Below are positions 3,863 to 25,637 of a DNA stretch of 64,000 bases, in pieces (positions within the stretch are counted from its first letter, which is position 1; each line of letters begins with the position of its first letter). A program made the position numbers and the translations under genes. This stretch comes from a virus (lineage: Duplodnaviria > Heunggongvirae > Uroviricota > Caudoviricetes). The notes below the pieces were generated by a model. It saw nothing but the letters and a program-made list of their open reading frames with translations, did no database searches and had not been told where the DNA came from. The stretch is from positions 6,193-70,192 of the IMG/VR virus record IMGVR_UViG_3300046507_000526; one strand, 5' to 3'.

Positions 3863-6499
3863 TTAGATAATCAGGTATAGATTGATGTAGTTCATCGGGT
3901 AGACGACTGAAATATTCAAATTGATGATTACCTGATCTTTATTATTCGGATCTTGAGCTAGACTCGTAATCTTATAACCTAAAAGCGGTGCACCGATCTT
4001 AGGAAGTTTCTGACCTTTGTAAAGCTCAGAAGCCGAAATAATAGTTTGACGCAAAGTATTCAAACTATCGGGTGTGATGTTCCATTTTCCGATGAATGAT
4101 TTCAATGTGTCTGAGTAGGCATATGATAACCAATCCCAGTTCTTAACTACAAGCAATTCACGATACTCAAGAACAGACATATCCGTGGTAAGTTCGTGAC
4201 GAACGTAAGGAATTGAACCTTGGGTTTCTTGTACGAACAGGAACGTACCAGCAGCAGCCATCGTATTCATCTGTGCTCTTGTGAAGAAAAAGTTTGAATA
4301 CTTCAGATCTGCAATACCAGCCACACCAACGTTTGTAAATCCTTGTTGCACAGGGAAGCCTGCAACCATACCGCCAAGAGCAGCACACAGATAGTAACCC
4401 GGCAGATACTTAACCACGCCACCGATAGTCACACCAACCGTATCCGGCTGAACGTGAATAACACGCTTGTCCGTAAACGTAGTGCTAACAGCAGCAACCG
4501 CAGCGGCCTTCTGAGCCTTAGTCAGCGTGCGAGTTACATAGTAGCTCACAGCTGTAGCAGTGCCCGTAGCAGCGACAACGACTTGCTGATTGCTCAGAAC
4601 TTGTTGAACTTGCAGCGAACCAACTTGAGTCGGCGTACCTGTAGCAGCCGTAACCACAACAGAGTCACCAGGAACAACACCGTCGCTCAGGAACGTAGCG
4701 TTAGAAGCCGTAAGCACGTAGTTACCGTTGATAACAGTAATTGCGTTGTTACCGCCATTAGCGTTTACAAAACCTGACGAGTAAGGACCGATATCCTGAA
4801 CAGTAGGAATAGCAGTGTTAACCAGAGCTACACGCCAAGCAGCCATTTGCGGAGTAGACATTTGATCTACGTGAGCTTGGAACATTGCCAGAATATCTTC
4901 TTCTTGCGTCAGCGGAACCAGTGCGTACAGGCGATGACCTTCAGCAAGCTCCAGAGCCGTTTCGTAACCAATCAGGTCATTTGAAGGCACAGCGATAACA
5001 TTGATTTGCGTCGTCGTGTTGGCCATACAAAGAACTGAAGCCAGACCCAGCGGATTCGCTTCGGAAGTATCACCTAGGATACCTTCGATATCACCAGTCG
5101 TAGTCAGAACCTGGATAGTTCCCGACAGATCTGTACGAAGACCACGGTACGCAAAGTGCACTTCACCGCTAACCACACGACCGTAAACGATGTACGGATT
5201 AGGTTCGATAGAAATCTGACCTGTCGTAGGAGCATTCGAAGCATCGTAGTTAGACGAGCTTGTATGCGGGTTTGTAGCAGGAAGAAGCTGGTTGTTATAT
5301 ACCTTGCGAGTCTTAACAGTGAACAGGGCCTTCTTGATAACAGCAACACCGCTCGACACAGTTGTACCGACAGCAGGCGAAATGGTAAGGACGTTAGATG
5401 CGACTGCAGAAACAGTAGCAACCAGGTCGGCATTGTTAGCACCAGCGCCGCGAATCAGGATCGTGTCACCAACGATGATACCTGTTGCGCTAGTAACAGT
5501 AACCGATGTAGCACCTGACGTAGCACCTGCTGAAAGCGTAGTTTGAACGCTAAGGTCAGAGGGAAGCACATCAGTCGTGTTCAGGGTAATAAGCGTAGAC
5601 GTAGGATTAGTTACTTGGGTAACCGTCGTCGTAAACGTCGAAGCTACAGCACTTACATTCGTATAATCGATTTCGATCTGATCACCGGCTTCAACCAGAA
5701 GGGTAGAAGTTGTCGAATTAACGTTTGAAATAGCCGCTTTGGTAATTACAGCGCCAGCTGCAGTCGTACCAGCTTGAGCAGAAATCGTGAACGTAGTACC
5801 CGAGATATTGGTAATCGTTGCAGTAAGTGCTGCACCAGCTGCACCTGCGCCTGCGATAGTGATCTGGTCACCGATAACAAAGCGTGTAGCGTTAGTCACC
5901 GAAGTGATAGAAGCTGAACCAGAAGTTGCAGAACCAGTACCGGTAGGAGCCGAAATATCCAGTTCGTTAGAACCAGAATAACCAAGGAATCCGCTTACAA
6001 GCGTTTCGATTTTTGCGTTGTTCAGATAAACCTGAACTGAGGTCGTATCTACAACTTGGCCAGGTTTGGTCGAAGGAAGACCGAACGTATTAACTACGCC
6101 AGAGTTGCTGATAACAGCCGTTTTCGTAACAGTAACACCGCTTACAGTTGTACCTGCAGCCGTGTCAGTCGTTGCCGTAAAGCCAGCTACTGAAAGAACT
6201 GTTGCGCTAAGTGTACTACCCGTGGAAGAAGCACCCGGAATAAGCAGAACATCACCGATAGCGAAAGGAACAGGCGCAGTAAAAGTAACCACAGCCGAAC
6301 CTGCTGTCATGCTACCAGAGGCGGAGACCGCTGGAACTGCTGCAGTTTGGATGAGAGATGCGGTCGAACCAGCTACGTAGCTAACTACGTTGTAAGCCGG
6401 ACCGACAAGGCACACTTCCAGATCAGGGGTAGTATTAGCAACACCGCCAGAGCTTTGCAGCTGTTGATAAACTAGTACTGATGGAATGACATATGACAT
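3863..6499 (-). CDS. Tail sheath protein with inserted beta-rich repeats
   Basis: 878 aa; N-terminal YVIPSVLVYQQ and C-terminal sheath domain (GYYLCAALGGMVAG, YVRHELTTD, REL..VKNWD..IGKWNIT, NLNISVVYPMNYI). Confidence 0.85.
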   Translation of the reverse strand: MSYVIPSVLVYQQLQSSGGVANTTPDLEVCLVGPAYNVVSYVAGSTASLIQTAAVPAVSASGSMTAGSAVVTFTAPVPFAIGDVLLIPGASSTGSTLSATVLSVAGFTATTDTAAGTTVSGVTVTKTAVISNSGVVNTFGLPSTKPGQVVDTTSVQVYLNNAKIETLVSGFLGYSGSNELDISAPTGTGSATSGSASITSVTNATRFVIGDQITIAGAGAAGAALTATITNISGTTFTISAQAGTTAAGAVITKAAISNVNSTTSTLLVEAGDQIEIDYTNVSAVASTFTTTVTQVTNPTSTLITLNTTDVLPSDLSVQTTLSAGATSGATSVTVTSATGIIVGDTILIRGAGANNADLVATVSAVASNVLTISPAVGTTVSSGVAVIKKALFTVKTRKVYNNQLLPATNPHTSSSNYDASNAPTTGQISIEPNPYIVYGRVVSGEVHFAYRGLRTDLSGTIQVLTTTGDIEGILGDTSEANPLGLASVLCMANTTTQINVIAVPSNDLIGYETALELAEGHRLYALVPLTQEEDILAMFQAHVDQMSTPQMAAWRVALVNTAIPTVQDIGPYSSGFVNANGGNNAITVINGNYVLTASNATFLSDGVVPGDSVVVTAATGTPTQVGSLQVQQVLSNQQVVVAATGTATAVSYYVTRTLTKAQKAAAVAAVSTTFTDKRVIHVQPDTVGVTIGGVVKYLPGYYLCAALGGMVAGFPVQQGFTNVGVAGIADLKYSNFFFTRAQMNTMAAAGTFLFVQETQGSIPYVRHELTTDMSVLEYRELLVVKNWDWLSYAYSDTLKSFIGKWNITPDSLNTLRQTIISASELYKGQKLPKIGAPLLGYKITSLAQDPNNKDQVIINLNISVVYPMNYINLYLII

Positions 6500-9900: not shown

Positions 9901-10081
9901 AAATAAAAGGATAATACAGGAGCTTGCTGATAACCCTGAACAGGTAAAAAGATTTACGCAATCTCGTAAATTCGTAAATCGTATAACAAAAGACCCCAAT
10001 AGACCTCCTCCGAGCCCGATCTTAATGGGTGCGTTAGCAGCTGCAGGGATGATAATGACCCTGCTAATTGTGACGCGATAA
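9887..10081 (+). CDS. Small C-terminally anchored membrane protein
   Basis: ATG 9887 overlaps the previous stop; C-terminal LMGALAAAGMIMTLLIV. Confidence 0.55.
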   Translation: MNHVENKRIIQELADNPEQVKRFTQSRKFVNRITKDPNRPPPSPILMGALAAAGMIMTLLIVTR

Positions 10082-10961: not shown

Positions 10962-11855
10962 TTAGAAGTTCAGCACAACTGCGCCGTTAACGTTACCGAT
11001 ACCTGCGCCAACAGCTTCGTAGGCGTGGAATTCGATAATGTCAGCTTCAGTCTTCAGGAAGACCGTCGGAGCTTGAAGTTCATAGAACTGACCAAGGTAG
11101 TTCTGCGGTGCAAACACAAGTGCTTGGTTCGTCGGCAGAATGTTTGCCTTGTTCGTCGTGATGATCTTGTAACCGAAGAACGTATCCAGCGAACCTTCAC
11201 CACGGAACAGGTCCGAAGCAGCAGGCGAACCGATATCCGTTGCAGCGAAAGTCAGCAGATCAGCATACATCGATTGCGTCATCAGGATACAACCAACAGG
11301 CAGCTTGTTCAGCAGCATGAACTTGATACCAGCCATCAGGTTAGCCTTTGTAAAGCCACCAGCGATAGTGTGGACATTGCTGTTTGCCGTAGCAATCGAA
11401 ACAATGTTGTTGTAGAAGTTCACGTCTTCTTGCTCTTGAATATCCTTAACGCTGTTTTCCTGAAGGATCGTGCGAATGTCGGTACGGTACGTAGCGAGTT
11501 CGAACTTGCTCTTGCGGAAATCTTGCGATTGAATCTTCTGGAAGGTCACCGGATAACGCGAAGTCTTCCAGTAACGAATTTCCGGACGGCCCAGGAACGG
11601 AGCAGTAGCTGCAACCGAGTCAGGTTCCTTTTCAACGATAACCGTCGGTTCTTCCGTCAGTTGGCGGTCGAGTTCCGAAGCAGTGATCTGAACAGGAGTC
11701 AGGATCTTACGGGTAAATCCGTCTTCACGAAGCTTCTGACGTACGAAAGCTGACATAGCATTCGAAGCTTCTTTGGTATGACCTTGGTCAATCTTATCGA
11801 GGAAAGATTGATTCAGGAATTGTACGTTTACAGTTTCTGTGGAATATGCGCTCAT
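10962..11855 (-). CDS. Major capsid protein (HK97/encapsulin-like fold)
   Basis: Gene order protease-scaffold-decoration-MCP-neck; HK97-like pattern (backbone helix VKDIQEQEDVNFY, FFGYKIITT, C-terminal P-domain strands EAVGAGIGN); optimised codon usage. Confidence 0.8.
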   Translation of the reverse strand: MSAYSTETVNVQFLNQSFLDKIDQGHTKEASNAMSAFVRQKLREDGFTRKILTPVQITASELDRQLTEEPTVIVEKEPDSVAATAPFLGRPEIRYWKTSRYPVTFQKIQSQDFRKSKFELATYRTDIRTILQENSVKDIQEQEDVNFYNNIVSIATANSNVHTIAGGFTKANLMAGIKFMLLNKLPVGCILMTQSMYADLLTFAATDIGSPAASDLFRGEGSLDTFFGYKIITTNKANILPTNQALVFAPQNYLGQFYELQAPTVFLKTEADIIEFHAYEAVGAGIGNVNGAVVLNF

Positions 11856-12429: not shown

Positions 12430-13026
12430 TTAACTCAGCATAAACTCAAGCAGAGGATCGGTTTTAGGACGTGCTACTCCTACGCCATTACCCATGCCCC
12501 ACGGTTCTTCAATAGCAGACGCCATTTTAGTTAGAAGTTCCGGAGAAACGCGTTGGAGTTCTTCCAGATCTTCCTGCGTGAATTGAGCGGCAGAAGCAAT
12601 CTTGGTAATCTGTTCGGGCATATGCGCGACAGCATCAATATGATCGAGCTGTGATTGATGATCTGAAGCCTGCTTTTCGATATTCAGCTTAAGACCTTCG
12701 ATTTGAGCTTCAAGAGCTTCTACATACTCAGCTGCTTTTTGAAGAAGTTCAACCGTGGGGTTAGCTTCGATTTGAACCTTAAAACTATTCAGTTCAGCAA
12801 GGTTAAGATTTGCAGCCTTAACCATTTTTACAGCGTCTTCGTGATCCACGCCTTTCATAGCGAGAACGGAAGCTGCTTCTTTTTCCATTACATGCTGAGC
12901 AACTTGAAGATACGCATCTTCTTCAGTGAAACCCGCTTGTTTAAGATGTTCTACGGCAACTGCCTCAGGCGTCGAAAGACGAACGGTTTCAGCATGTTGT
13001 CTAAGAATTGATGATAGATTACTCAT
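12430..13026 (-). CDS. Scaffold-like head protein with K-x-A motifs
   Basis: Coiled-coil; MEKEAAS, LQKAAE, IEKQAS, ITKIAS, LTKMAS; two G-x-D/T-x-E-D-A helical repeats. Confidence 0.6.
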   Translation of the reverse strand: MSNLSSILRQHAETVRLSTPEAVAVEHLKQAGFTEEDAYLQVAQHVMEKEAASVLAMKGVDHEDAVKMVKAANLNLAELNSFKVQIEANPTVELLQKAAEYVEALEAQIEGLKLNIEKQASDHQSQLDHIDAVAHMPEQITKIASAAQFTQEDLEELQRVSPELLTKMASAIEEPWGMGNGVGVARPKTDPLLEFMLS

Positions 13027-13486
13027 TGTCTTTTCTCTTTTTTTCCATTACGCCTTTGGCGTGATTGTGTCTAACGTGATCCAGGATACTAGCGCCAGGA
13101 GTTGCGCCTATTACGCCACCCGCCAGAGTTCCAGCAGGTCTTAGGATAGCGTGCGTTTTTAAGCCCTTTTTAAGTGAGTCAGTAACATCGTAGGATCCTT
13201 CCCCGATTTTGCCAACACCCTTGATGACATTTTTATTAAGTGCACGTCTTGAAAGTACCTGGGCCAATTTCTTGCCACCAGCCATACCTCCGACTACACC
13301 TACTGCAGCGCCTATCGTACTCACTACATTCCCACCGGCTACTTTAGCTGCATTCTTAAAAGAAGAAATTCCAGCATCTCGGTACTCTTGCGTGTATGTA
13401 TGCTTCTCTTCTTTGCTCAGAGATTTATGGTACCCAATACTCGGGAAAAGCGCAGCGGCTTTTTCAAGATACTTGTTTGTCGACAT
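13019..13486 (-). CDS. Tagged internal head protein (MSTNKYLEKAAA), glycine-zipper segments
   Basis: N-terminal tag; IGAAVGVVGGMAGG and GTLAGGVIGA. Confidence 0.65.
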   Translation of the reverse strand: MSTNKYLEKAAALFPSIGYHKSLSKEEKHTYTQEYRDAGISSFKNAAKVAGGNVVSTIGAAVGVVGGMAGGKKLAQVLSRRALNKNVIKGVGKIGEGSYDVTDSLKKGLKTHAILRPAGTLAGGVIGATPGASILDHVRHNHAKGVMEKKRKDNE

Positions 13487-13913
13487 GTTTACTTATCATT
13501 TTGTTAATCTTAACGCCAGCATAATCCGCAGCAAGACTTGTAGCACCGGTTAGAGCTAGAAGTTTTGCATTGTGCATTCTTCCGCCAGTACCGATAAGTT
13601 TGGGGGTTAGCTTGTTAACAGCGAAGCCTGTACCCGCACCAAGTGTACCGATAACTCCAGTATCTATAGCGTCATGCTTCCAATTAGGATTTCGTTCCTG
13701 AAACGTTGAAGCCACTTTGTGTAAAGCTCTATTGAACAATGTCTTTGCTCCTTCAGATAGTTTAGCACCTGGAGAAACAACATGTTCAGGCTTTGCAACT
13801 TGGCCGAGATGTGTGCCCTTGTCGATCTCCATACCGGCTACTTTAATTCTACCGTGTTCATCGAGATCAATATCAAGGTTTGCAATTTTTTCGAGATATT
13901 TATTCATAGCCAA
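13464..13913 (-). CDS. Tagged internal head protein (MAMNKYLEKIAN)
   Basis: N-terminal tag; GVIGTLGAGTGFAV and LLALTGATSLAA. Confidence 0.65.
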   Translation of the reverse strand: MAMNKYLEKIANLDIDLDEHGRIKVAGMEIDKGTHLGQVAKPEHVVSPGAKLSEGAKTLFNRALHKVASTFQERNPNWKHDAIDTGVIGTLGAGTGFAVNKLTPKLIGTGGRMHNAKLLALTGATSLAADYAGVKINKMISKHVDKQVS

Positions 13914-13978
13914 TATGAAAAAAACCCCTCCATACCGAGGATACAGAGGGGCTTAGTACTTAGTTGTAATGCAGCTAA

Positions 13979-14805
13979 TTAGTCTTTCTTTTCGCCGTGA
14001 TGTTTCATAGCGGAATAAGCTTTGCCGCCGTAGAAACCACCTGCAACTTCGCCACCGATAGCAGCGGCCACAGCAGCGCCTGAGCTAAATTTGCGACCTA
14101 GTGCATAACCTAGTGCTGTCCCAGCCGAACCTCCAAGACCACCGCCTAGGATTGTACCGCCAACTTTGTCGCCTTTCTTGGAGCCCATGTACCCGGCTAC
14201 CAAACCAGCAACAGCAGCTTTTTCGATTTCAGCAGCTTTTTCGATTTCAGCAGCTTTCTTTTCAACCATTTCAACGGCTGAATCAAAATCAAGGCCATTT
14301 TCGACTAGCATGTCAACTGCGGCTTTCTTTTCACGGTCTTTGTCTTTTTTAGACATTGCGGCAGCAGCGACACCAGCACCCACTGCAGCAGCACCAGCAC
14401 CGATAGCTGCCTTAGCACCCATCCCCATGCCTTTCTTTGCAACAGCTACAGCCCGTGAAGGAAGTGCTTTAGGACCAAATGCTACTTTTTCCAACTCAGA
14501 TGCTTTCTTTTCAACCATTTGCACAGCTGAATCAAAGTCCACGCCTGATTCGATCAGGAGACCAACTGCGGCTTGCTTCTCTTGATCATTATTCTTTACA
14601 GCGGCGGTCACACCAGCACCAATCGCAGTTGCACCAAGTGCAGTAGCAGCGACGCGTGCTTTGTTAAGCTTCCGACCTTCGCCGAGAGCGTTTTTAACGC
14701 CCCCGCCCGTACCCGGAATACGTGTAACCTTCTGAGCTAACGACGTGCCTGGAACTTTACCTACTAGTTGCAGGACACCCGCTTCTTTCGTTAGCCCAGC
14801 TTTTT
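13979..14805 (-). CDS. -1 frame extension of the scaffold protein (ORF-track ORF 13979..14611 plus 65 open codons upstream)
   Basis: Frame is open from the A_AAA_AAG site through GTG 14611; begins KAGLTKEAG; no canonical start upstream of 14611. Confidence 0.7.
14212..14257. repeat. 18-bp tandem repeat (about 2.5 copies) encoding EIEKAA
   Basis: CAGCAGCTTTTTCGATTT twice plus a partial copy. Confidence 0.9.
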
Positions 14806-15660
14806 TACCAAGTTTACTGCAGTTTCGAAGTCGAAACCAGCTTCCATGAAGTGGTTAAGAGCAGCTTGCTTGATTTGAGCATCTTCTTCACGTTGAATTT
14901 CTTCCGCAGCAGCCTTTACCAGGTTAACTGCATCTTCGAAATCATGACCTTGCTCGACCAGTGCTGAAACAGCAGCAGCCTTTTCTTGAGCATCGCCAGC
15001 AACGGTAAATGCACCAGTAGCGACTTGGTTAGGAGTCTGTGCAGCAACTTGTGCGCCTTCTTCCTTAGCAACGCCAGGCGTAGGATTTTGATCAACAGGA
15101 GCTGCGCCACGAGCCATTGCGTCAGCAACGATTGCGTCGAAAATCTGGTTAATAGAACCACCATTACCACGACCATCCGTACCCGGTTGGTTTTGGATAA
15201 TGCGATCTTGTTCTGCTACTTGAGCAGCCAGGTCTACCTGGGTCTTAGTCGGCGTTGCGCTAGCAATACCGTTAGTAGTATTCATGTCACCAACTGAAGC
15301 CAGCTTCTCAAGAAGAGCTTCGGCCAGTGCCTTACCTGCGTCAGCAGCTTGTTTGTTCATAGTATCCTCTGTTGTTACTTGATCAAGTTTAATGGATGCA
15401 ACCTTTTGCATTACTTCTTTAGCTAACTCTGCACCCTTAGCCGCAGCTTCTTTGGTACGTTCGTCAGCATCGTTTTCCTTTTTGGCGTCTTTGACATCTT
15501 TCTCAGTCTTTTCTACATCTTTCTTGACTTCCTTGACGTCCTTATCGGCCTTTTCTTCATCTTTCTTCTCATCTTTCTCTGTCTCTTCGCTGGCGGACTT
15601 ATTAAGACCGGCGCTCTTTTCAAGATCCTGGATGAGATCATCAAGACTTAGATTCATCAT
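14791..15660 (-). CDS. Scaffolding protein
   Basis: Directly after the protease; acidic/basic coiled coil; eight or more K-x-A motifs. Confidence 0.7.
   Translation of the reverse strand: MMNLSLDDLIQDLEKSAGLNKSASEETEKDEKKDEEKADKDVKEVKKDVEKTEKDVKDAKKENDADERTKEAAAKGAELAKEVMQKVASIKLDQVTTEDTMNKQAADAGKALAEALLEKLASVGDMNTTNGIASATPTKTQVDLAAQVAEQDRIIQNQPGTDGRGNGGSINQIFDAIVADAMARGAAPVDQNPTPGVAKEEGAQVAAQTPNQVATGAFTVAGDAQEKAAAVSALVEQGHDFEDAVNLVKAAAEEIQREEDAQIKQAALNHFMEAGFDFETAVNLVKKLG
14800..14806 (-). other. Slippery heptamer A_AAA_AAG (programmed -1 frameshift candidate)
   Basis: GTA AAA AAG CTG GGC TAA, two codons before the scaffold stop. Confidence 0.65.
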
Positions 15661-15712
15661 GACTAATATCCTTTTTTAACGAGGCTACTGAATTGTAGCC
15701 TTATGAAAATCT

Positions 15713-17230
15713 TCAGTCAATCTTTTTGTTCTGAATCAACTTTAACATTGCCGATTTGGCTAATCTGTAAGTCAATTTGTAGTCAGAAGCAGATTTAACT
15801 AAAGGTATTTTAACACCAACTGAAACCCTATTCAATTCTTGATCTTTCATTTTTTTCTCAATTACTTGAGTGATATACCATTTAGCAGCCAGAGCAGCAC
15901 CACCGATGGCAACAATTGTATTTAGGATCTTTAGAAGTTGAGGTGTTTTATCAGCTGATTCAGTGAGATTCTGCTCACGGAATTTTTCATATACTGTAGA
16001 CTCGATGTGTGGGCCGTTACCGCTATAGCCTACGTTTGTGCCTTGTACAAAGCCATACGCTGAAGCCTGTTTATTAAATGCTACACGCTCCTCTACGTAT
16101 TCCGGGAAATACGAAGCATCTTGCATGTGGGGAAGCAGAGCATAAGCGATACCAAGATTAGGTTCTGTAATTTCGCCGAAATCTTTATCGAAATCCATTA
16201 ACCCGTCGATTCCAACTTTGTTGATATAAGCAGCTGTAAGAGGACCTATACCACGAGCATCACTGCCTAGTATTTTCCTACCAATCAGTTCAGCGAGAAA
16301 ACCCAATGAAGGGCTAATGCCAAGATGACCCAAGGTACTAAGAATCTCGTTAAGCTTATAGTTCTTAATAACGTCGATAACGTCACCTTGCGGATCCGAA
16401 ACTCGTGATACAAGATTATCAAAATTAGAATCGATAGATACAACATCACCGTCAACCTCTTTAAGCAATTCCGATAGCTTTTTAAGAGCAGCGGATTTGT
16501 TCATTGTTATCTCTTCGAGGCCAGCCGCCAATGCTTCATCAACAGAGCTAATAGCAGGTTGAGCAGAAGCTACTTTTTGTAGAACTGCGCTTGTAACATC
16601 GGCAGGGCGGAATACGATAGAAATATCGAAGAACTTAAGTGGCGCAAGATTTAGCGCCATAACCTTACGACCGTCTGGATAGACACGGCCAAGTTGTTCG
16701 CTAAGATGCTCGCAATATTGTTCACGGGTCTTAGCTTTGTTGCCACAAATACTGCAAACGTCAAAAGGCGTGCGGCATGCCATAGAAGTTTTGGGCCAAT
16801 CTCCGCTACCAATACGTTCTGCAATATCAGGAGCCTTATCGTTCCAAAGTTCAGCGATAAGTTCAACGCGATGCATACGTTCATTGTAAACAGAGAACAC
16901 AACTCTACCGATAGCGATGGCAGGATCTTTGTTTACGTGATTGCGGAAAATATGAGCAGGAGATGTTTCGAACGTCTTGTGATAATCGATCAGCGTAGAT
17001 TCTGGAAAATAATCAGCGTTGCGATTGGCACCATAGAACTCACCAGCTCCCATGGCCAGGATGTGAAGATACGTTTTACCATCTACGGGTGTAATTTTAG
17101 AGGCGAACTCCTGTACTCTAGAGTCCGTGGCTTGTTTAACAAGACTGCCTGTAAGATCCCTATTGTCAAGTACAGTAACATGAGGTTCGTCTTGATAAAA
17201 AGAAGAGGTGTCGATTAATTTCGTTAGCAT
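15713..17230 (-). CDS. Prohead (maturation) protease
   Basis: GANRNADYF, FRNH (His), TSMACR (Ser), CSICG...CEH Zn motif; head-module position; self K-x-A sites. Confidence 0.75.
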   Translation of the reverse strand: MLTKLIDTSSFYQDEPHVTVLDNRDLTGSLVKQATDSRVQEFASKITPVDGKTYLHILAMGAGEFYGANRNADYFPESTLIDYHKTFETSPAHIFRNHVNKDPAIAIGRVVFSVYNERMHRVELIAELWNDKAPDIAERIGSGDWPKTSMACRTPFDVCSICGNKAKTREQYCEHLSEQLGRVYPDGRKVMALNLAPLKFFDISIVFRPADVTSAVLQKVASAQPAISSVDEALAAGLEEITMNKSAALKKLSELLKEVDGDVVSIDSNFDNLVSRVSDPQGDVIDVIKNYKLNEILSTLGHLGISPSLGFLAELIGRKILGSDARGIGPLTAAYINKVGIDGLMDFDKDFGEITEPNLGIAYALLPHMQDASYFPEYVEERVAFNKQASAYGFVQGTNVGYSGNGPHIESTVYEKFREQNLTESADKTPQLLKILNTIVAIGGAALAAKWYITQVIEKKMKDQELNRVSVGVKIPLVKSASDYKLTYRLAKSAMLKLIQNKKID

Positions 17231-17257: not shown

Positions 17258-17578
17258 TTAGTTGGACTCTGGATTGTCTTGATGGAGACGAAGGTTAACC
17301 GTTACCTTAGGTTTCTTCTTAAGAGACTCTGAAATAACTTTCAATTGGTTAAGAGATTGAGCTTCCAGTTCCGCCATATGTCGGCCTCGCTGTTTACTCT
17401 CTGTACTATTTTTAAAATTAGCAACGCCCAGTCCTAGACCAGATGCAGACATTGCTAATCCAATTTTCGAAGTGGTAGAACTACGTTTCCACCCTCTAGC
17501 GAAATCCTTACCAACCGCCTTAATGCCTTCTTTAACAGCCGACATTGAAGCAATCTTTTCAAGGTATTTATTTTCCAT
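17258..17578 (-). CDS. Tagged internal head protein (MENKYLEKIAS)
   Basis: Tag; IGLAMSASGLGLGVA segment; basic. Confidence 0.65.
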   Translation of the reverse strand: MENKYLEKIASMSAVKEGIKAVGKDFARGWKRSSTTSKIGLAMSASGLGLGVANFKNSTESKQRGRHMAELEAQSLNQLKVISESLKKKPKVTVNLRLHQDNPESN

Positions 17579-17580
17579 AA

Positions 17581-18363
17581 TTACTTCTTAAGTTGTTTGC
17601 TTGAATAATACGCACCAGCTCCAGCAAGAGCGGTTCCCAGGATAGATTTACCCAGGCCTTTTGCGAATCTCCCAGGCTTGGCTTTAATAAAGCTTTTAAT
17701 TTCGCCAAGGGAGTTTTTTGCATAAGCATCAGAACCCTTCATATACTTGTTAGATACTGAGCCTTTATTCGTAAATACCGACTTTTCAAGGGTATCGTAT
17801 ATTTTCTTCTTTTGCAATTTTTTGGCAAAAGGTGGAGTGAAAGGGTCTCCCTTCATATCCTTGAAAATCTTTTTAACTTCTGGATTACGTACTTTTTTAA
17901 ACTCATCAGATTTCCACGTAGGTGCATTGACATGAACTACTCCTTTAGAACTTTTAGTTCCGGGAATCATATCTTTGAACCTACTCATGGCATCGTGTAT
18001 TTTGAAAGTGCCTTCGTGAATTCTTTGGGCCTGATTTGCGTACGTATGAGCTTGATGTTTAGACTTTGTCATAAACACATGCTCTTTTGACTTCAACGCA
18101 TCTTCACCATGAACTTCTTCTGCGACGTCAATAATACCTTTAGAAGCTCGTGGTTTAAGCCCTTCTTTGAGAATCTTCTTTTTATGTTCTACTGCAGTTC
18201 CGTGATAAAGAGTTTCACGCCCAGTAAGATGGCCACGATCATATTGATCCTTGGCCATGCCGACGCCTGCTACGACTGCAGCACCACCAGCTATCGTCTT
18301 ATTGGTTTTGTTCTCATCTTTACCCCGGGAAGACTCTGCGACTTTCTCAAGGTATTTGTTCAT
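17581..18363 (-). CDS. Tagged ADP-ribosyltransferase-fold protein (Tpt1/PARP-like HY clade)
   Basis: MNKYLEKVA; LYHGT...ILKEGLKP, VFMT...AHTYA; hydrophobic segments at both ends. Confidence 0.6.
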   Translation of the reverse strand: MNKYLEKVAESSRGKDENKTNKTIAGGAAVVAGVGMAKDQYDRGHLTGRETLYHGTAVEHKKKILKEGLKPRASKGIIDVAEEVHGEDALKSKEHVFMTKSKHQAHTYANQAQRIHEGTFKIHDAMSRFKDMIPGTKSSKGVVHVNAPTWKSDEFKKVRNPEVKKIFKDMKGDPFTPPFAKKLQKKKIYDTLEKSVFTNKGSVSNKYMKGSDAYAKNSLGEIKSFIKAKPGRFAKGLGKSILGTALAGAGAYYSSKQLKK

Positions 18364-23031: not shown

Positions 23032-23811
23032 TTAACATCCGGGTGGATGCTGATTATCACCAGAAGCAACGGTAATCGTCCCCGTGCCAGTACTAGACCC
23101 ATTTGCAACAGCCACACCCCCGCCTGAGCTATTTGCCTGATTGTAGGCAGCTCCGTAGTAAATACTTGCTACGTACGCCGAAGTAGAACTTCCGTTTCCT
23201 CGATCCGTAGCCGCTAATCCAATATAAGCCTGGAAAGTTGCTTCCATTCTGCTGTTATACGTGAATTGACCTATTGTGAATTTACTACCCGATTGTTTCA
23301 CTGCTTTATATTTGGATTCTAAAACTACGAGCCCTGCAAGCAGTTGATTTGATACAGTAGATGAGCCATTAAATTTAGCAGAAAGGCTCTCTCCTGGATT
23401 TACACAAAGTATAGACACAAGATCAGGTCTTGCAGTCTCGATCAGGCACTTACCTGTTTTCTGAGAAGCGCCTTTCACCTGGTTCCAACCCATAGTCTGT
23501 AGAAGACCCCAAGCTCGAAGGCCCTGATCTACGTTGACAGATTGCTGATTAATACCTCTTCCAACTATATTCTGTACAGCGCTAGAATTGTAATAATCCC
23601 TGGCACCTGACGAGTTTATAACGCTCAAAGCAGGGCCTTGAGCATTTACATTGAAATGGCTCTCGTATTGAATCTGAGCCATAACCAACTTTACAATATC
23701 GTTCTCTTTGCCAAGAGTATTGGGAAAATACTGATCAAGTAACTGTCTGATCGTTGTAGCACAAATCTGTTTAATAGAGGTATCTACGACGGTTCCTGTA
23801 ACAGCACCCAT
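23032..23811 (-). CDS. Virion-associated lytic transglycosylase (SLT-like)
   Basis: AQIQYESHFN catalytic Glu motif and AWGLLQTMG; ATG overlaps the beta'-C stop (TAATG). Confidence 0.65.
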   Translation of the reverse strand: MGAVTGTVVDTSIKQICATTIRQLLDQYFPNTLGKENDIVKLVMAQIQYESHFNVNAQGPALSVINSSGARDYYNSSAVQNIVGRGINQQSVNVDQGLRAWGLLQTMGWNQVKGASQKTGKCLIETARPDLVSILCVNPGESLSAKFNGSSTVSNQLLAGLVVLESKYKAVKQSGSKFTIGQFTYNSRMEATFQAYIGLAATDRGNGSSTSAYVASIYYGAAYNQANSSGGGVAVANGSSTGTGTITVASGDNQHPPGC

Positions 23812-25637
23812 TAGTACTTACCTCCCTCTCCTTCACCGAATTCATTGCCGATAATATACGAAGTAATGGGATCAGTACTGTGAATATGTGATTCAGATCC
23901 TACAGCTGCACTTTCACGTAAGGTGTTTTTAAGACCTGAGAATGAAAGCTTAGATACCCAGTTATCATCGAGTAATTTAGCTGTCTTAAGACCAGGCACA
24001 ATCGGAACTACTCGAAGTCCAGTCGGAGCCACAGGCACCTTGGTTACCCCCTTTTCACGCAATTCCTGAATATGATTACCGTCAAGAAGTGTTCCCGGCG
24101 TAAGCTCATAAACGCCTTTTGCTAAAAGTTTACCTTCAGCCTGGTCAAGAGGAACTTCTCCATGAGTGTCAGCAAAATACTTGCGCACTGTATTCACATC
24201 AATCTTTTGGCCAGGTAGGAAACCAGTTTCAGCAGGATCAATTACTTCAACGTGCTTGACCAGGTTCTTGGCAATCATTTCGAAATGGCGAGGATCAAGG
24301 CCTCCGCCGTATATTCCACGAAGCTCATGGGCCATGTACAGCCGACCTGCACCCAGACCTTTCAGTCCAACCAGTTTTCGAGGATTTACAACACCGGTAG
24401 AAAGGGCATCGCCTTTGAGAATCTTTTCGCCAACAGCAACTTTAAGATTCTGATTGTTAGGCACGAAGTGTGCCTGCTCGTTTACGAACACATTATGGTC
24501 ACCAAGAGGGGTTTGCTTAATTGCGGAAACCACGCCATTGATATTCGAGATCGTTGCTTCGTCTTTGAAGTTTTCCGAAGGATTACGCAGAAGATTCGAG
24601 GCTTGATCGTAAGAGTTACCCTTACGAGCACCAACAGAAGCTTTGTGCTTCGTAGAAAGCATGGACTGCGTCAAAACTTCAGATACAGATTGAGCAGCGA
24701 TAACACCAACGTTTTCACCAATCTCAGCAGGTTTACCATTTCCCATTAATCCATAGCATTTCTTGCAAACACCATCATGTGCTTCGCATGTCAATACACT
24801 ACGCACCTTCATGTCTTTATGGCCTGAATTTACAAGTTCTTTGTAATAGTGCTCATCGATTAAGGTGTTCGTACCAACTTCGTAGCGGCCAATAGCTCCC
24901 TTTTTGTCGGCGATTGGCAAAGTTATACCGTTTGTCGTCCCGCAATCGTCAATAGTAATTACTTCATGGAATACGGTAGGGGAAAGTTCCTTAAACAGAG
25001 CGCCTGGAAGAGCTGTAGACAACTGAGATAGAACGGTAGATCCACGACCCATATACGACATTGCGATAACCTCTGCAGGAGTCATACCTTGAGCAAAAGA
25101 ATGCTTAATAACGAAAGGAACAAGTTCCCCTTTAAGGTTGATCGACATAAGAGGGGTCGATGTACCAGTAGCAAGCTGCGTGGGATTACCACGCGCACCA
25201 GTACGAGCCATCTTTGCAGCAGTCGAGCCTTTGCTCAAAAGATAGTCAAGGTTTTGTTTTTCGATCTTACCGTTGTATTCGCCAGTTAGATTTCCCAGCG
25301 CATCATTCTCTTCTTTCTTTGAAAATTTCTTTGCAAAGATTTGATCAACCTTTGTTTGAAATTCATCGATGATAGCCTGACGTTCGTCAGATTCATTTAT
25401 GTAATCGCTGAGCGGAGTAGTAGCACCAATCTCGGTTGCCTTGTTGAAGAACTTCTTACCGAGATCATTAATCGTTTCATGGCTATTAGGCCCGCCGTGC
25501 TTAAGAAGTACATTGACCAAGTCGCTGATAGCGCCTTTATCAAGAGGCCTGTACAGATCGAAGTTGTCCTTCGCTTCTTGAGTGGGAAGTTCTGATTTGA
25601 GCCTAATGGCTCCAGGCGTGGTATATTTTTCAGTCAT
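23811..25637 (-). CDS. rpoC: RNA polymerase beta' subunit, C-terminal fragment
   Basis: ARTGARGN, VITIDDCGT, RSVLTC, CKKCYG, GENVGVIAAQSVSEVLTQSMLSTKH (trigger loop), PRHFEMI. Confidence 0.9.
   Translation of the reverse strand: MTEKYTTPGAIRLKSELPTQEAKDNFDLYRPLDKGAISDLVNVLLKHGGPNSHETINDLGKKFFNKATEIGATTPLSDYINESDERQAIIDEFQTKVDQIFAKKFSKKEENDALGNLTGEYNGKIEKQNLDYLLSKGSTAAKMARTGARGNPTQLATGTSTPLMSINLKGELVPFVIKHSFAQGMTPAEVIAMSYMGRGSTVLSQLSTALPGALFKELSPTVFHEVITIDDCGTTNGITLPIADKKGAIGRYEVGTNTLIDEHYYKELVNSGHKDMKVRSVLTCEAHDGVCKKCYGLMGNGKPAEIGENVGVIAAQSVSEVLTQSMLSTKHKASVGARKGNSYDQASNLLRNPSENFKDEATISNINGVVSAIKQTPLGDHNVFVNEQAHFVPNNQNLKVAVGEKILKGDALSTGVVNPRKLVGLKGLGAGRLYMAHELRGIYGGGLDPRHFEMIAKNLVKHVEVIDPAETGFLPGQKIDVNTVRKYFADTHGEVPLDQAEGKLLAKGVYELTPGTLLDGNHIQELREKGVTKVPVAPTGLRVVPIVPGLKTAKLLDDNWVSKLSFSGLKNTLRESAAVGSESHIHSTDPITSYIIGNEFGEGEGGKY

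Follow-up and report, generated by a model that had tools for sequence, protein, structure and literature searches.

A probable programmed -1 ribosomal frameshift joins a scaffold-like head gene to a C-terminal extension in an uncultured soil phage

Programmed -1 ribosomal frameshifting (PRF) in tailed phages is textbook knowledge for the tail assembly chaperones and is also known for some capsid proteins. In the dnaX gene of Escherichia coli, the shift is helped by an upstream Shine-Dalgarno-like (SD-like) stimulator, the downstream structure is set off by a 6-nt spacer and the frameshift product is the shorter protein. The conserved frameshift of the tail assembly chaperones, represented by gpG/gpGT of phage lambda, goes back to Xu, Hendrix and Duda 2004 (as cited in PMC10885494 and PMC9965538); the major capsid protein (MCP) of Kuravirus is extended by -1 PRF at GGGAAAG (PMC9965538), and that of the MSTV1-like archaeal viruses is made by PRF in most members and by direct fusion in one (PMC11375127). 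Here we analyse a 64,000-nt stretch of DNA (the window, whose coordinates are used throughout; positions 6,193 to 70,192 of IMGVR_UViG_3300046507_000526), which comes from a 134-kb IMG/VR virus record (estimated completeness 73%) and belongs to an uncultured soil phage related to Salmonella phage Arash. In this window, a scaffold-like open reading frame (ORF) of 289 aa hands over, at a slippery A-run, to a long open extension in the -1 frame. Our search of the -1 frameshift literature returned tail-chaperone and capsid cases only, the closest being capsid extensions with fused or frameshifted relatives (PMC9965538, PMC11375127), and no description of a -1 frameshift in a scaffold or internal head gene was found in the searchable literature. 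The proposed mechanism is a canonical one, known from dnaX and the IS3 elements; its occurrence in this kind of gene is new within the reach of the literature search.

The model we propose builds on what is observed at the locus: the layout of the two frames, its conservation, the coding selection on the stretch that bridges them, the homology of the joined product to single-ORF relatives and a constraint at the RNA level near the site. That some recoding event joins both frames is very likely; that this event is programmed -1 ribosomal frameshifting at the A-run, by which one transcription unit would give two forms, short and long, is in our judgement probable. Ribosomes that stay in frame would stop at TAA 14791 and release a 289-aa short form ending with two helix-turn-helix repeats. 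A fraction of the ribosomes would slip back by one base on A_AAA_AAG, through the tandem slip of two Lys-tRNAs, probably aided by a conserved two-stem hairpin located 1-3 nt downstream that we infer to be the stimulator. The slipped ribosomes would read 274 more codons and release a 561-aa long form, in which the A-run slip junction would appear as the Glu-C peptide TAVNLVKKAGLTKE. The long form would thereby restore the C-terminal module that almost every family member has within one ORF, a Gly/Ala-rich hydrophobic linker plus a terminal-type repeat, and would also gain a Gly-rich module of the kind found in small head proteins that stand alone. The shift would be ribosomal, the long form would be minor and the short:long ratio would be fixed in prohead assembly, as for lambda G/GT, T7 10A/10B and Gag/Gag-Pol. 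A programmed -1 frameshift had been put forward in an earlier note made from this DNA alone, and the A6G count, the split layout, the selection on the bridge and the ancestral single-ORF architecture all support it.

The elements of the frame hand-over are the following.
14791-15660, minus strand: 0-frame ORF, short scaffold-like isoform, 289 aa
14800-14806, minus strand: slippery heptamer A_AAA_AAG, in 0-frame phase (GTA AAA AAG), at the frame hand-over
14791-14793, minus strand: 0-frame stop TAA, 6 nt past the heptamer and within the 5' arm of stem 1
13979-14806, minus strand: -1 frame extension, 274 aa after the shift (275 aa as P0001)
14612-14799, minus strand: bridge, 65 codons in the -1 frame without ATG, GTG or TTG

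The 289-aa ORF consists of an N-terminal LxDLIxDLEKSAGL motif, an acidic Lys/Glu-rich region, a central domain and the repeats R1 and R2, and its 3' end reads GTA AAA AAG CTG GGC TAA. Beginning with KKAGLTKEAG, the -1 frame runs uninterrupted from the heptamer to a stop at 13979-13981; its first ATG, GTG or TTG is GTG 14611, 65 codons downstream of the heptamer. The trans-frame product amounts to 287 + 274 = 561 aa, 272 aa longer than the in-frame product, and the extension carries in succession the bridge with Gly/Ala-rich segment 1, repeat R3, Gly/Ala-rich segment 2, repeat R4, a Gly-rich module and a basic tail. The earlier note had described an ORF end with A_AAA_AAG at 14806..14800, a -1 frame open to 13979 and starting with KAGLTKEAG, 65 codons free of a start before the GTG and a long product of about 560 aa; all of this agrees with the computed layout, the heptamer being in phase. 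Pfam and PHROG searches of the 289-aa ORF and of the extension returned nothing usable. The motif AAAAAAG by itself is unremarkable: it occurs 32 times in the window, where shuffles lead one to expect 25.8. What goes beyond chance is the layout and its conservation, not the heptamer alone: a 275-codon open -1 frame begins exactly at the heptamer, is kept in eight diverged lineages and gives a trans-frame product colinear with single-ORF relatives.

The start-less bridge bears the marks of a coding sequence read in the -1 frame. Its variable sites fall on the first, second and third -1-frame codon positions in the proportion 15/14/39, out of 54 each, in four sequences. Counted in the -1 frame, the synonymous and non-synonymous differences are 19:14, 21:14 and 16:18, against 4:30-33 in the 0 frame, and the ratio of non-synonymous to synonymous substitution rates (dN/dS) is 0.11-0.50 in the -1 frame at pairwise dS of 0.43-1.06 (seven lineages). 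Because dN/dS is low despite the high dS, and because of the codon-position pattern, the bridge has evidently long been, and still is, translated in the -1 frame.

Relatives of the locus were gathered by a search with the protease, which gave ten related contigs, by homology searches with the extension and look-ups of the encoding contigs, which gave five more loci, and by a profile search, which gave L033. The two-frame layout is kept in eight lineages (the window, L004/5/6, L007/10, L008/9, L019, L020, L021 and L022/23) plus L033. The split layout, mostly with the same A6G run, is carried by 7 IMG/VR contigs from 7 samples and by the Logan and JGI contigs L019-L023, and the split lineages span more than 12 samples from several studies. 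Logan contigs from three more runs, belonging to two other studies, span the heptamer without an indel, and one of these bridging contigs is only about 90% identical to the window (77 differences in 772 bases). The count of A in the heptamer is that of assembled contigs, not of raw reads; at this level, A6 rather than A7, the choice that the earlier note wished to see checked, is supported by the same A6G count in independent assemblies. Its second check, the conservation of the heptamer in relatives, gave a divided answer. A_AAA_AAG is identical in six lineages (the window, L004-L010, L021 and L022/23), and L033, whose scaffold is 69% identical, reads GTA AAA AAA CTC CAG GGC TAA, that is, the canonical A_AAA_AAA with one more codon before the stop, and encodes in its -1 frame a homologous bridge (...GLMKEAGALAVIGK...SLA...TRIPGSGG). 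L019 and L020, otherwise dissimilar, share an identical two-base change and read GTA AAA ACA CTG GGC TAA (L019:2270-2285, L020:2060-2075) in place of A_AAA_AAG; in both, the -1 frame is intact and conserved and the hairpin is retained. The sequence CTG GGC TAA (or CAG GGC TAA) is invariant in all 8 split lineages. Scans of viral and metagenome contigs for a conserved 22-mer pattern found only the lineages already known.

Around the site, the constraint extends to the nucleotides themselves. Between codons -2 and +8, 9 of the 10 codons for conserved residues are nucleotide-invariant, against 22/94 elsewhere (Fisher p=5.8e-5; seven lineages). Folding of the alignment with RNAalifold, for 7 and for 8 lineages, gave a hairpin made of two stems.
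14733-14798, minus strand: candidate stimulatory hairpin
14788-14798 with 14733-14743, minus strand: stem 1, 11 bp, whose 5' arm starts 1-2 nt past the heptamer and holds the 0-frame stop
14780-14787, minus strand: internal loop, 8 nt
14771-14779 with 14744-14751, minus strand: stem 2, 8-9 bp, with a variable apical region

The 3' arm of stem 1 corresponds to the codons TCG TTA GCT, 38-68 nt downstream, of which TCG TTA are invariant in all lineages. Pairing is kept in 97.7% of the alignment cells, against 26-47% in slid registers (seven lineages). Once L033 is added, 2 pairs have undergone compensatory double changes, one from U-A to C-G and the other from G-C to A-U, and 5 show one-sided changes that wobble pairing tolerates. 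Both stems are kept in L019 despite a 24-nt apical insertion, and L033, whose minimum free energy fold (-36.1 kcal/mol, z=-1.9) leaves a spacer of 6 nt, shows the same succession of stem 1, 8-nt internal loop and stem 2. Upstream of the slip site, at -30 to -21 (about 14866-14896; R E E .. Q. K Q A), invariant codons form another small group, which may be due to chance or to another RNA element.

The relatives that carry a continuous gene give the joined product its ancestry. L002, L003 and L011, whose protease is the most similar (83% identical), have a single continuous ORF of 405-419 aa that aligns with the trans-frame product of the window across the junction and into the third repeat. Together with P0016, these forms are 72-75% identical and continuous; at the junction, the continuous relatives have neither a heptamer nor a conserved block. 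The remoter homologs P0006, P0008-P0012 and P0015 (323-431 aa) are continuous as well. An exhaustive profile search of 1.84 billion cluster representatives retrieved 274 clusters, 136 of them at E<=1e-30, most of which are 360-450 aa long, match the profile from end to end and are continuous, many others reaching 500-774 aa with duplicated modules and about a dozen, of 280-303 aa, ending after repeat 2. The typical architecture of the family comprises an N-terminal LxxLLxxLE, an acidic region, a central domain, R1 and R2, a Gly/Ala-rich hydrophobic linker and a terminal repeat ending ...ELYG; in the clade of the window, everything past R2 is reachable through the -1 frame only. Split and fused forms interleave at about 70% identity, the split P0054 being 69% and the fused P0016 72% identical to the protein of the window. 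No hidden extension was found when the short members P0090/P0120 (L034, L035) were checked for one, so that a short-only scaffold is viable too. A continuous ORF in relatives was named in the earlier note as a finding that would speak against the frameshift; such ORFs do exist in L002, L003, L011 and most of the family, but they lack the heptamer and the conserved block and hence support rather than refute the fusion product. P0009, one of the full-length continuous homologs, is filed in NCBI under a Methanosarcina sp. metagenome-assembled genome and is most likely a mis-binned viral contig, since the family is a phage family.

The extension repeats the modules of the short form, as the following coordinates indicate; the structural data come from an AlphaFold2 (AF2) model of the extension, with its predicted local distance difference test (pLDDT) scores, and the hydropathies are on the Kyte-Doolittle scale.
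14887-14991, minus strand: repeat R1, 0-frame part
14791-14880, minus strand: repeat R2, 0-frame part, with the heptamer in its last helix
14597-14653, minus strand: Gly/Ala-rich hydrophobic segment 1, P0001 residues 52-70, mean hydropathy 1.68 over 19 residues
14483-14587, minus strand: repeat R3, helix-turn-helix, predicted helices 73-86 and 91-110, pLDDT 69-86
14351-14416, minus strand: Gly/Ala-rich hydrophobic segment 2, P0001 residues 131-152, mean hydropathy 1.43-1.74, low model confidence
14234-14338, minus strand: repeat R4, helix-turn-helix, predicted helices 153-169 and 174-209, pLDDT 93-98

The repeat unit, of about 35 aa and with the consensus EKQAAVxxLVExGxDFDxAVxLVxxKAxEL, is thus present in the four copies announced by the earlier note. 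The equivalent of segment 1 stands before the terminal repeat in the continuous relatives. The description of the segments as membrane-like did not fare as well, their hydropathy being borderline (1.4-1.7 over 19 residues) and the model being of low confidence. The model of the whole extension has a mean pLDDT of 59.7; a wide structural search with it returned generic helical hairpins only (Z <=6.2), the neighbours in the ESM Atlas were unnamed (scores 0.81, TM <=0.42), and PDB sequences, searched with a full-length homolog and a repeat profile built from 28 members, gave no match or chance matches only. Homology to a characterised scaffolding family was not found by the Pfam, PHROG, PDB and fold searches, and the label 'scaffold' is inferred from gene position and composition only.

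That position is clear in the order of the head module, which runs on the minus strand from the protease-like gene through the 289-aa acidic ORF and several small ORFs to the major capsid gene; the 289-aa ORF thus occupies a scaffold-type place between the protease-like and MCP genes, and the order in Arash is identical.
15713-17230, minus strand: protease-like gene, 505 aa, matching phrog_18299 (head maturation protease) and related phrogs
10962-11855, minus strand: major capsid gene, phrog_2522, E=2.9e-13
23811-25637: matches to RNA polymerase beta phrogs, phage-encoded multisubunit RNA polymerase

Several neighbours of the 289-aa ORF share elements with it. The motif NKYLEK[IV]A forms the N-terminus of the small head-module ORFs 13464-13913, 13019-13486, 17258-17578 and 17581-18363, also opens the corresponding ORFs in L002-L010, and is resembled by the DLEKSAGL of the scaffold-like N-terminus. 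Two genes downstream, a 198-aa ORF (12430-13026, minus strand) contains the same repeat twice (12871-12975 and 12790-12894), and its C-terminus (...EPWGMGNGVGVARPKTDPLLEFMLS) is conserved in all relatives. The stand-alone metagenome proteins P0007, P0013 and P0014 consist of a repeat, a Gly-rich body and a terminal repeat ending ELYGD. Since the repeat is also found as a C-terminal module on otherwise unrelated Gly-rich proteins, the sequences suggest that it would be a portable unit for capsid targeting or for binding to the capsid interior, the Gly-rich pieces being the cargo. None of 50,697 phage records matched the region at the DNA level. A relative about 90% identical over the region was met on a 3.1-kb contig of run X6, a run of 54 million letters that is not labelled as a metagenome and whose longest contig is 103 kb; it could represent a cultured host or a phage isolate of the group. 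No tRNA genes were found in the window, so that there is no phage-encoded Lys-tRNA to weigh.

Could the two forms serve to load the prohead? We offer this extension of the model tentatively, as a possibility well short of probable. In a manner similar to Gag/Gag-Pol, the short form would make up the core, and the rare long form would co-assemble with it through the N-terminal scaffold body that both share and bring a fixed small number of Gly-rich, possibly membrane-active cargo modules into each prohead. The cargo module would come with its own capsid-binding helix-turn-helix repeats and would be of the same kind as that which the neighbouring genes would deliver by means of an N-terminal NKYLEKIA tag. 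The A_AAA_ACA lineages would then reveal a second, non-heptamer route to the same shift, by a slip in the P site only or by a shifty stop.

Several observations weigh against the shift at the A-run and temper our confidence in it. In L019 and L020, the tandem slip is impossible at A_AAA_ACA, which is no slippery heptamer, and the shift there would possibly occur by a P-site-only slip on A_AAA or at another site, for example the invariant G_GGC_TAA. The base of the stem lies 1-3 nt past the heptamer in the clade of the window, against the usual 5-9 nt. The covariation of the hairpin is thin, with its 2 double changes, and 73/500 shuffles of the seven-lineage alignment reach the observed score; the local fold energy is unexceptional (z=-1.07 for the window and -1.9 for L033). 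An upstream SD-like stimulator was sought near the heptamer and none was found, although the phage's own starts pair weakly with the SD anyway. Finally, the Gly/Ala-rich gp224 of Arash is a gene in its own right, with a terminator before it and an SD and an ATG to start from, so that phages of this group can evidently make do with a separate downstream protein.

With regard to the starts themselves, every bona fide one between window positions 10000 and 26000 is an ATG preceded by an A-rich leader, and its pairing with the SD is weak (-1 to -6 kcal/mol for most of the best duplexes), the sole exception being that at 23811 (GGAGAGGGAGG). This weak pairing may hint at a host that relies little on the SD.

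The best surviving alternative, which we nonetheless regard as unlikely, moves the slip a few nucleotides downstream. At the invariant G_GGC_TAA, the Gly-tRNA in the P site would pass from GGC to GGG with the stop codon in the A site (a 'shifty stop'), alone or besides the A-run, and the junction would read ...VKKLG-LTKEAG. A slowly decoded A-site stop stimulates P-site slippage, and G_GGC_TAA is invariant in the split lineages, including L019 and L020, which have no canonical heptamer. The passage from GGC to GGG would, however, leave a wobble mismatch, and the site is inside stem 1 while stem 2 begins 11 nt past the stop, which is a poor spacing. Furthermore, the canonical heptamer is kept in 6/8 lineages and was not lost in L033, which switched to A_AAA_AAA, another canonical one, and the VKQAG/VKAAG that continuous relatives have at the junction is nearer to the VKKAG that results from the A-run slip.

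Transcriptional slippage, in which the host or the phage polymerase would add one A to the A6 so that part of the mRNAs would carry A7, would yield exactly the same protein as the -1 ribosomal slip; we hold it to be quite unlikely. Known cases of productive transcriptional slippage use runs of about 7-9 or more A/T, and the run is only A6 in the window and A5 in L019/L020, below the lengths known for this process. Moreover, the conserved element is a downstream hairpin placed as typical stimulators of ribosomal frameshifting are. The fact that this phage encodes its own multisubunit RNA polymerase (23811-25637), as does Arash (PMC10585845), may speak for such a slippage.

The two frames could also be two separate genes, the downstream ORF starting at GTG 14611 or at another internal or non-canonical start and the heptamer being a mere Lys-Lys pair. 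This is indeed how the gene callers annotate the downstream ORF, and the independent gene for a Gly/Ala-rich protein that follows the scaffold homolog in Arash provides a precedent. The start assumed by this explanation is not conserved, GTG 14611 being ATG in L004 and GTT in L007/L009, and the gene callers choose a different internal Met for the downstream ORF in each relative. Just 5' of GTG 14611, the sequence is rich in GC, and a leader of the A-rich or AAGGA type, as the genuine ATG starts nearby have, is missing. Purifying selection in the -1 frame acts on the 65-82 codons that precede the start, and these codons correspond by homology to the linker of the single-ORF relatives. The signals that surround the two frames bear on the same question.
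15692-15720, minus strand: sigma-70-like promoter match (TTGACT, 17-nt spacer, TACAAT), 10/12 consensus positions, a consensus match only
13922-13954, minus strand: intrinsic-terminator-like hairpin with T-run, 15 pairs, 25 nt past the -1-frame stop

In every split lineage, the terminator-like hairpin comes after the -1 stop, and in the continuous relatives it comes after the single stop; between the 0-frame stop and 13979, no minus-strand terminator match was found, and the frames have no intergenic spacer between them. Because the start is not conserved, because neither a spacer nor a terminator separates the frames, and because the terminator-like hairpin follows the -1 stop and a promoter match lies upstream, the stretch from approximately 15720 to 13922 looks like one gene or transcription unit, and separate genes appear very unlikely. 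The terminator-like hairpin itself is highly conserved (CCCCTCTGTATCCTCG[AG]T[AG]T[AG]GAGGGG plus a T-run at window 13922-13954, with equivalents in L004-L022), across lineages whose coding sequences have diverged to a dS of about 1.

An artefact or decay, that is, a homopolymer miscount, a recent frameshift mutation or a pseudogene, to which the continuous gene of close relatives might invite, is so improbable that assembly error and pseudogene may be regarded on these sequences as excluded for practical purposes, because the same split is kept in 8 lineages at dS 0.4-1.0 and in more than 12 samples, with bridging contigs free of an indel, because the downstream frame is intact and under purifying selection, and because no homopolymer miscount could restore the frame in the AAAAACA variants.

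Programmed -1 frameshifting at the A-run being our preferred reading, the family offers a natural experiment, in which fused, short-only and split genes with three variants of the A-run coexist within about 70% identity. Within it, the function of the C-terminal Gly/Ala-rich-plus-repeat part can be tested directly, and so can the benefit of keeping the short:long ratio fixed. On the practical side, automatic gene calls go wrong at this locus: in every relative examined, they turn the extension into a hypothetical protein of its own with a displaced start.

The nearest cultured relative, Arash (OQ632216), a 180.8-kb myovirus that packages an RNA polymerase (PMC10585845), shares the gene order and has an MCP 56% identical to that of the window. 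Its Gp223 is a homolog of the scaffold-like protein (33% identical over residues 167-287), stands after the protease homolog Gp222 and before the MCP, and has repeats of the DFDxAV type; it differs in being a single ORF, about 255 aa long, whose three repeats are contiguous, without Gly/Ala linker or heptamer, and with a terminator directly after its stop. A frameshift between gp223 and gp224 was considered and rejected, since a terminator and an SD-ATG separate both genes. Gp223 was found in purified virions with 9 unique peptides, in a preparation that listed 116/272 proteins (PMC10585845); its presence in purified particles points away from a scaffold absent from mature virions, and Gp223 may, unlike a classical scaffold, stay in the head.

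The gp8 scaffolding protein of P22 binds the coat through a C-terminal helix-turn-helix domain. The likeness of the window's protein to it is a resemblance only, that of an acidic helical protein beside the capsid gene with a short C-terminal helix-turn-helix predicted by the AF2 model; no sequence or fold match was obtained, and capsid binding by the repeat is only putative. As a recoding site, the locus shares with dnaX tau/gamma the identical A_AAA_AAG and a conserved downstream stem-loop and would likewise give two products at a ratio set by recoding, but it has no SD-like element, its spacer is of 1-3 nt (6 nt in L033) and its shifted product is the longer one. The OrfAB of the IS3 family (IS911, IS150) has the same heptamer, a 0-frame stop close by, a branched or extended downstream structure and a fusion that adds a domain; these are transposases, not a virion assembly gene, and there is no sequence relationship. 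In lambda gpG/gpGT, we recognise a late morphogenesis gene with an abundant short and a rare long form that share their N-terminus, neither being meant as a major virion protein, and a long form whose added domain ties the chaperone to another component, to which the long form of the window may be likened; it is different in serving the tail and not the head, in its heptamer G_GGA_AAG and in its protein family. The 10A/10B proteins of T7/T3 come from a capsid-module gene likewise extended at its C-terminus by -1 PRF near the stop. In T7/T3, Kuravirus and the MSTV1-like viruses, it is the MCP that is extended, often by an immunoglobulin-like decoration, whereas here it is a scaffold-like gene whose extension repeats its own modules. 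The coexistence of PRF and direct fusion among the MSTV1-like viruses nevertheless parallels that of the split and fused forms in the family of the window.

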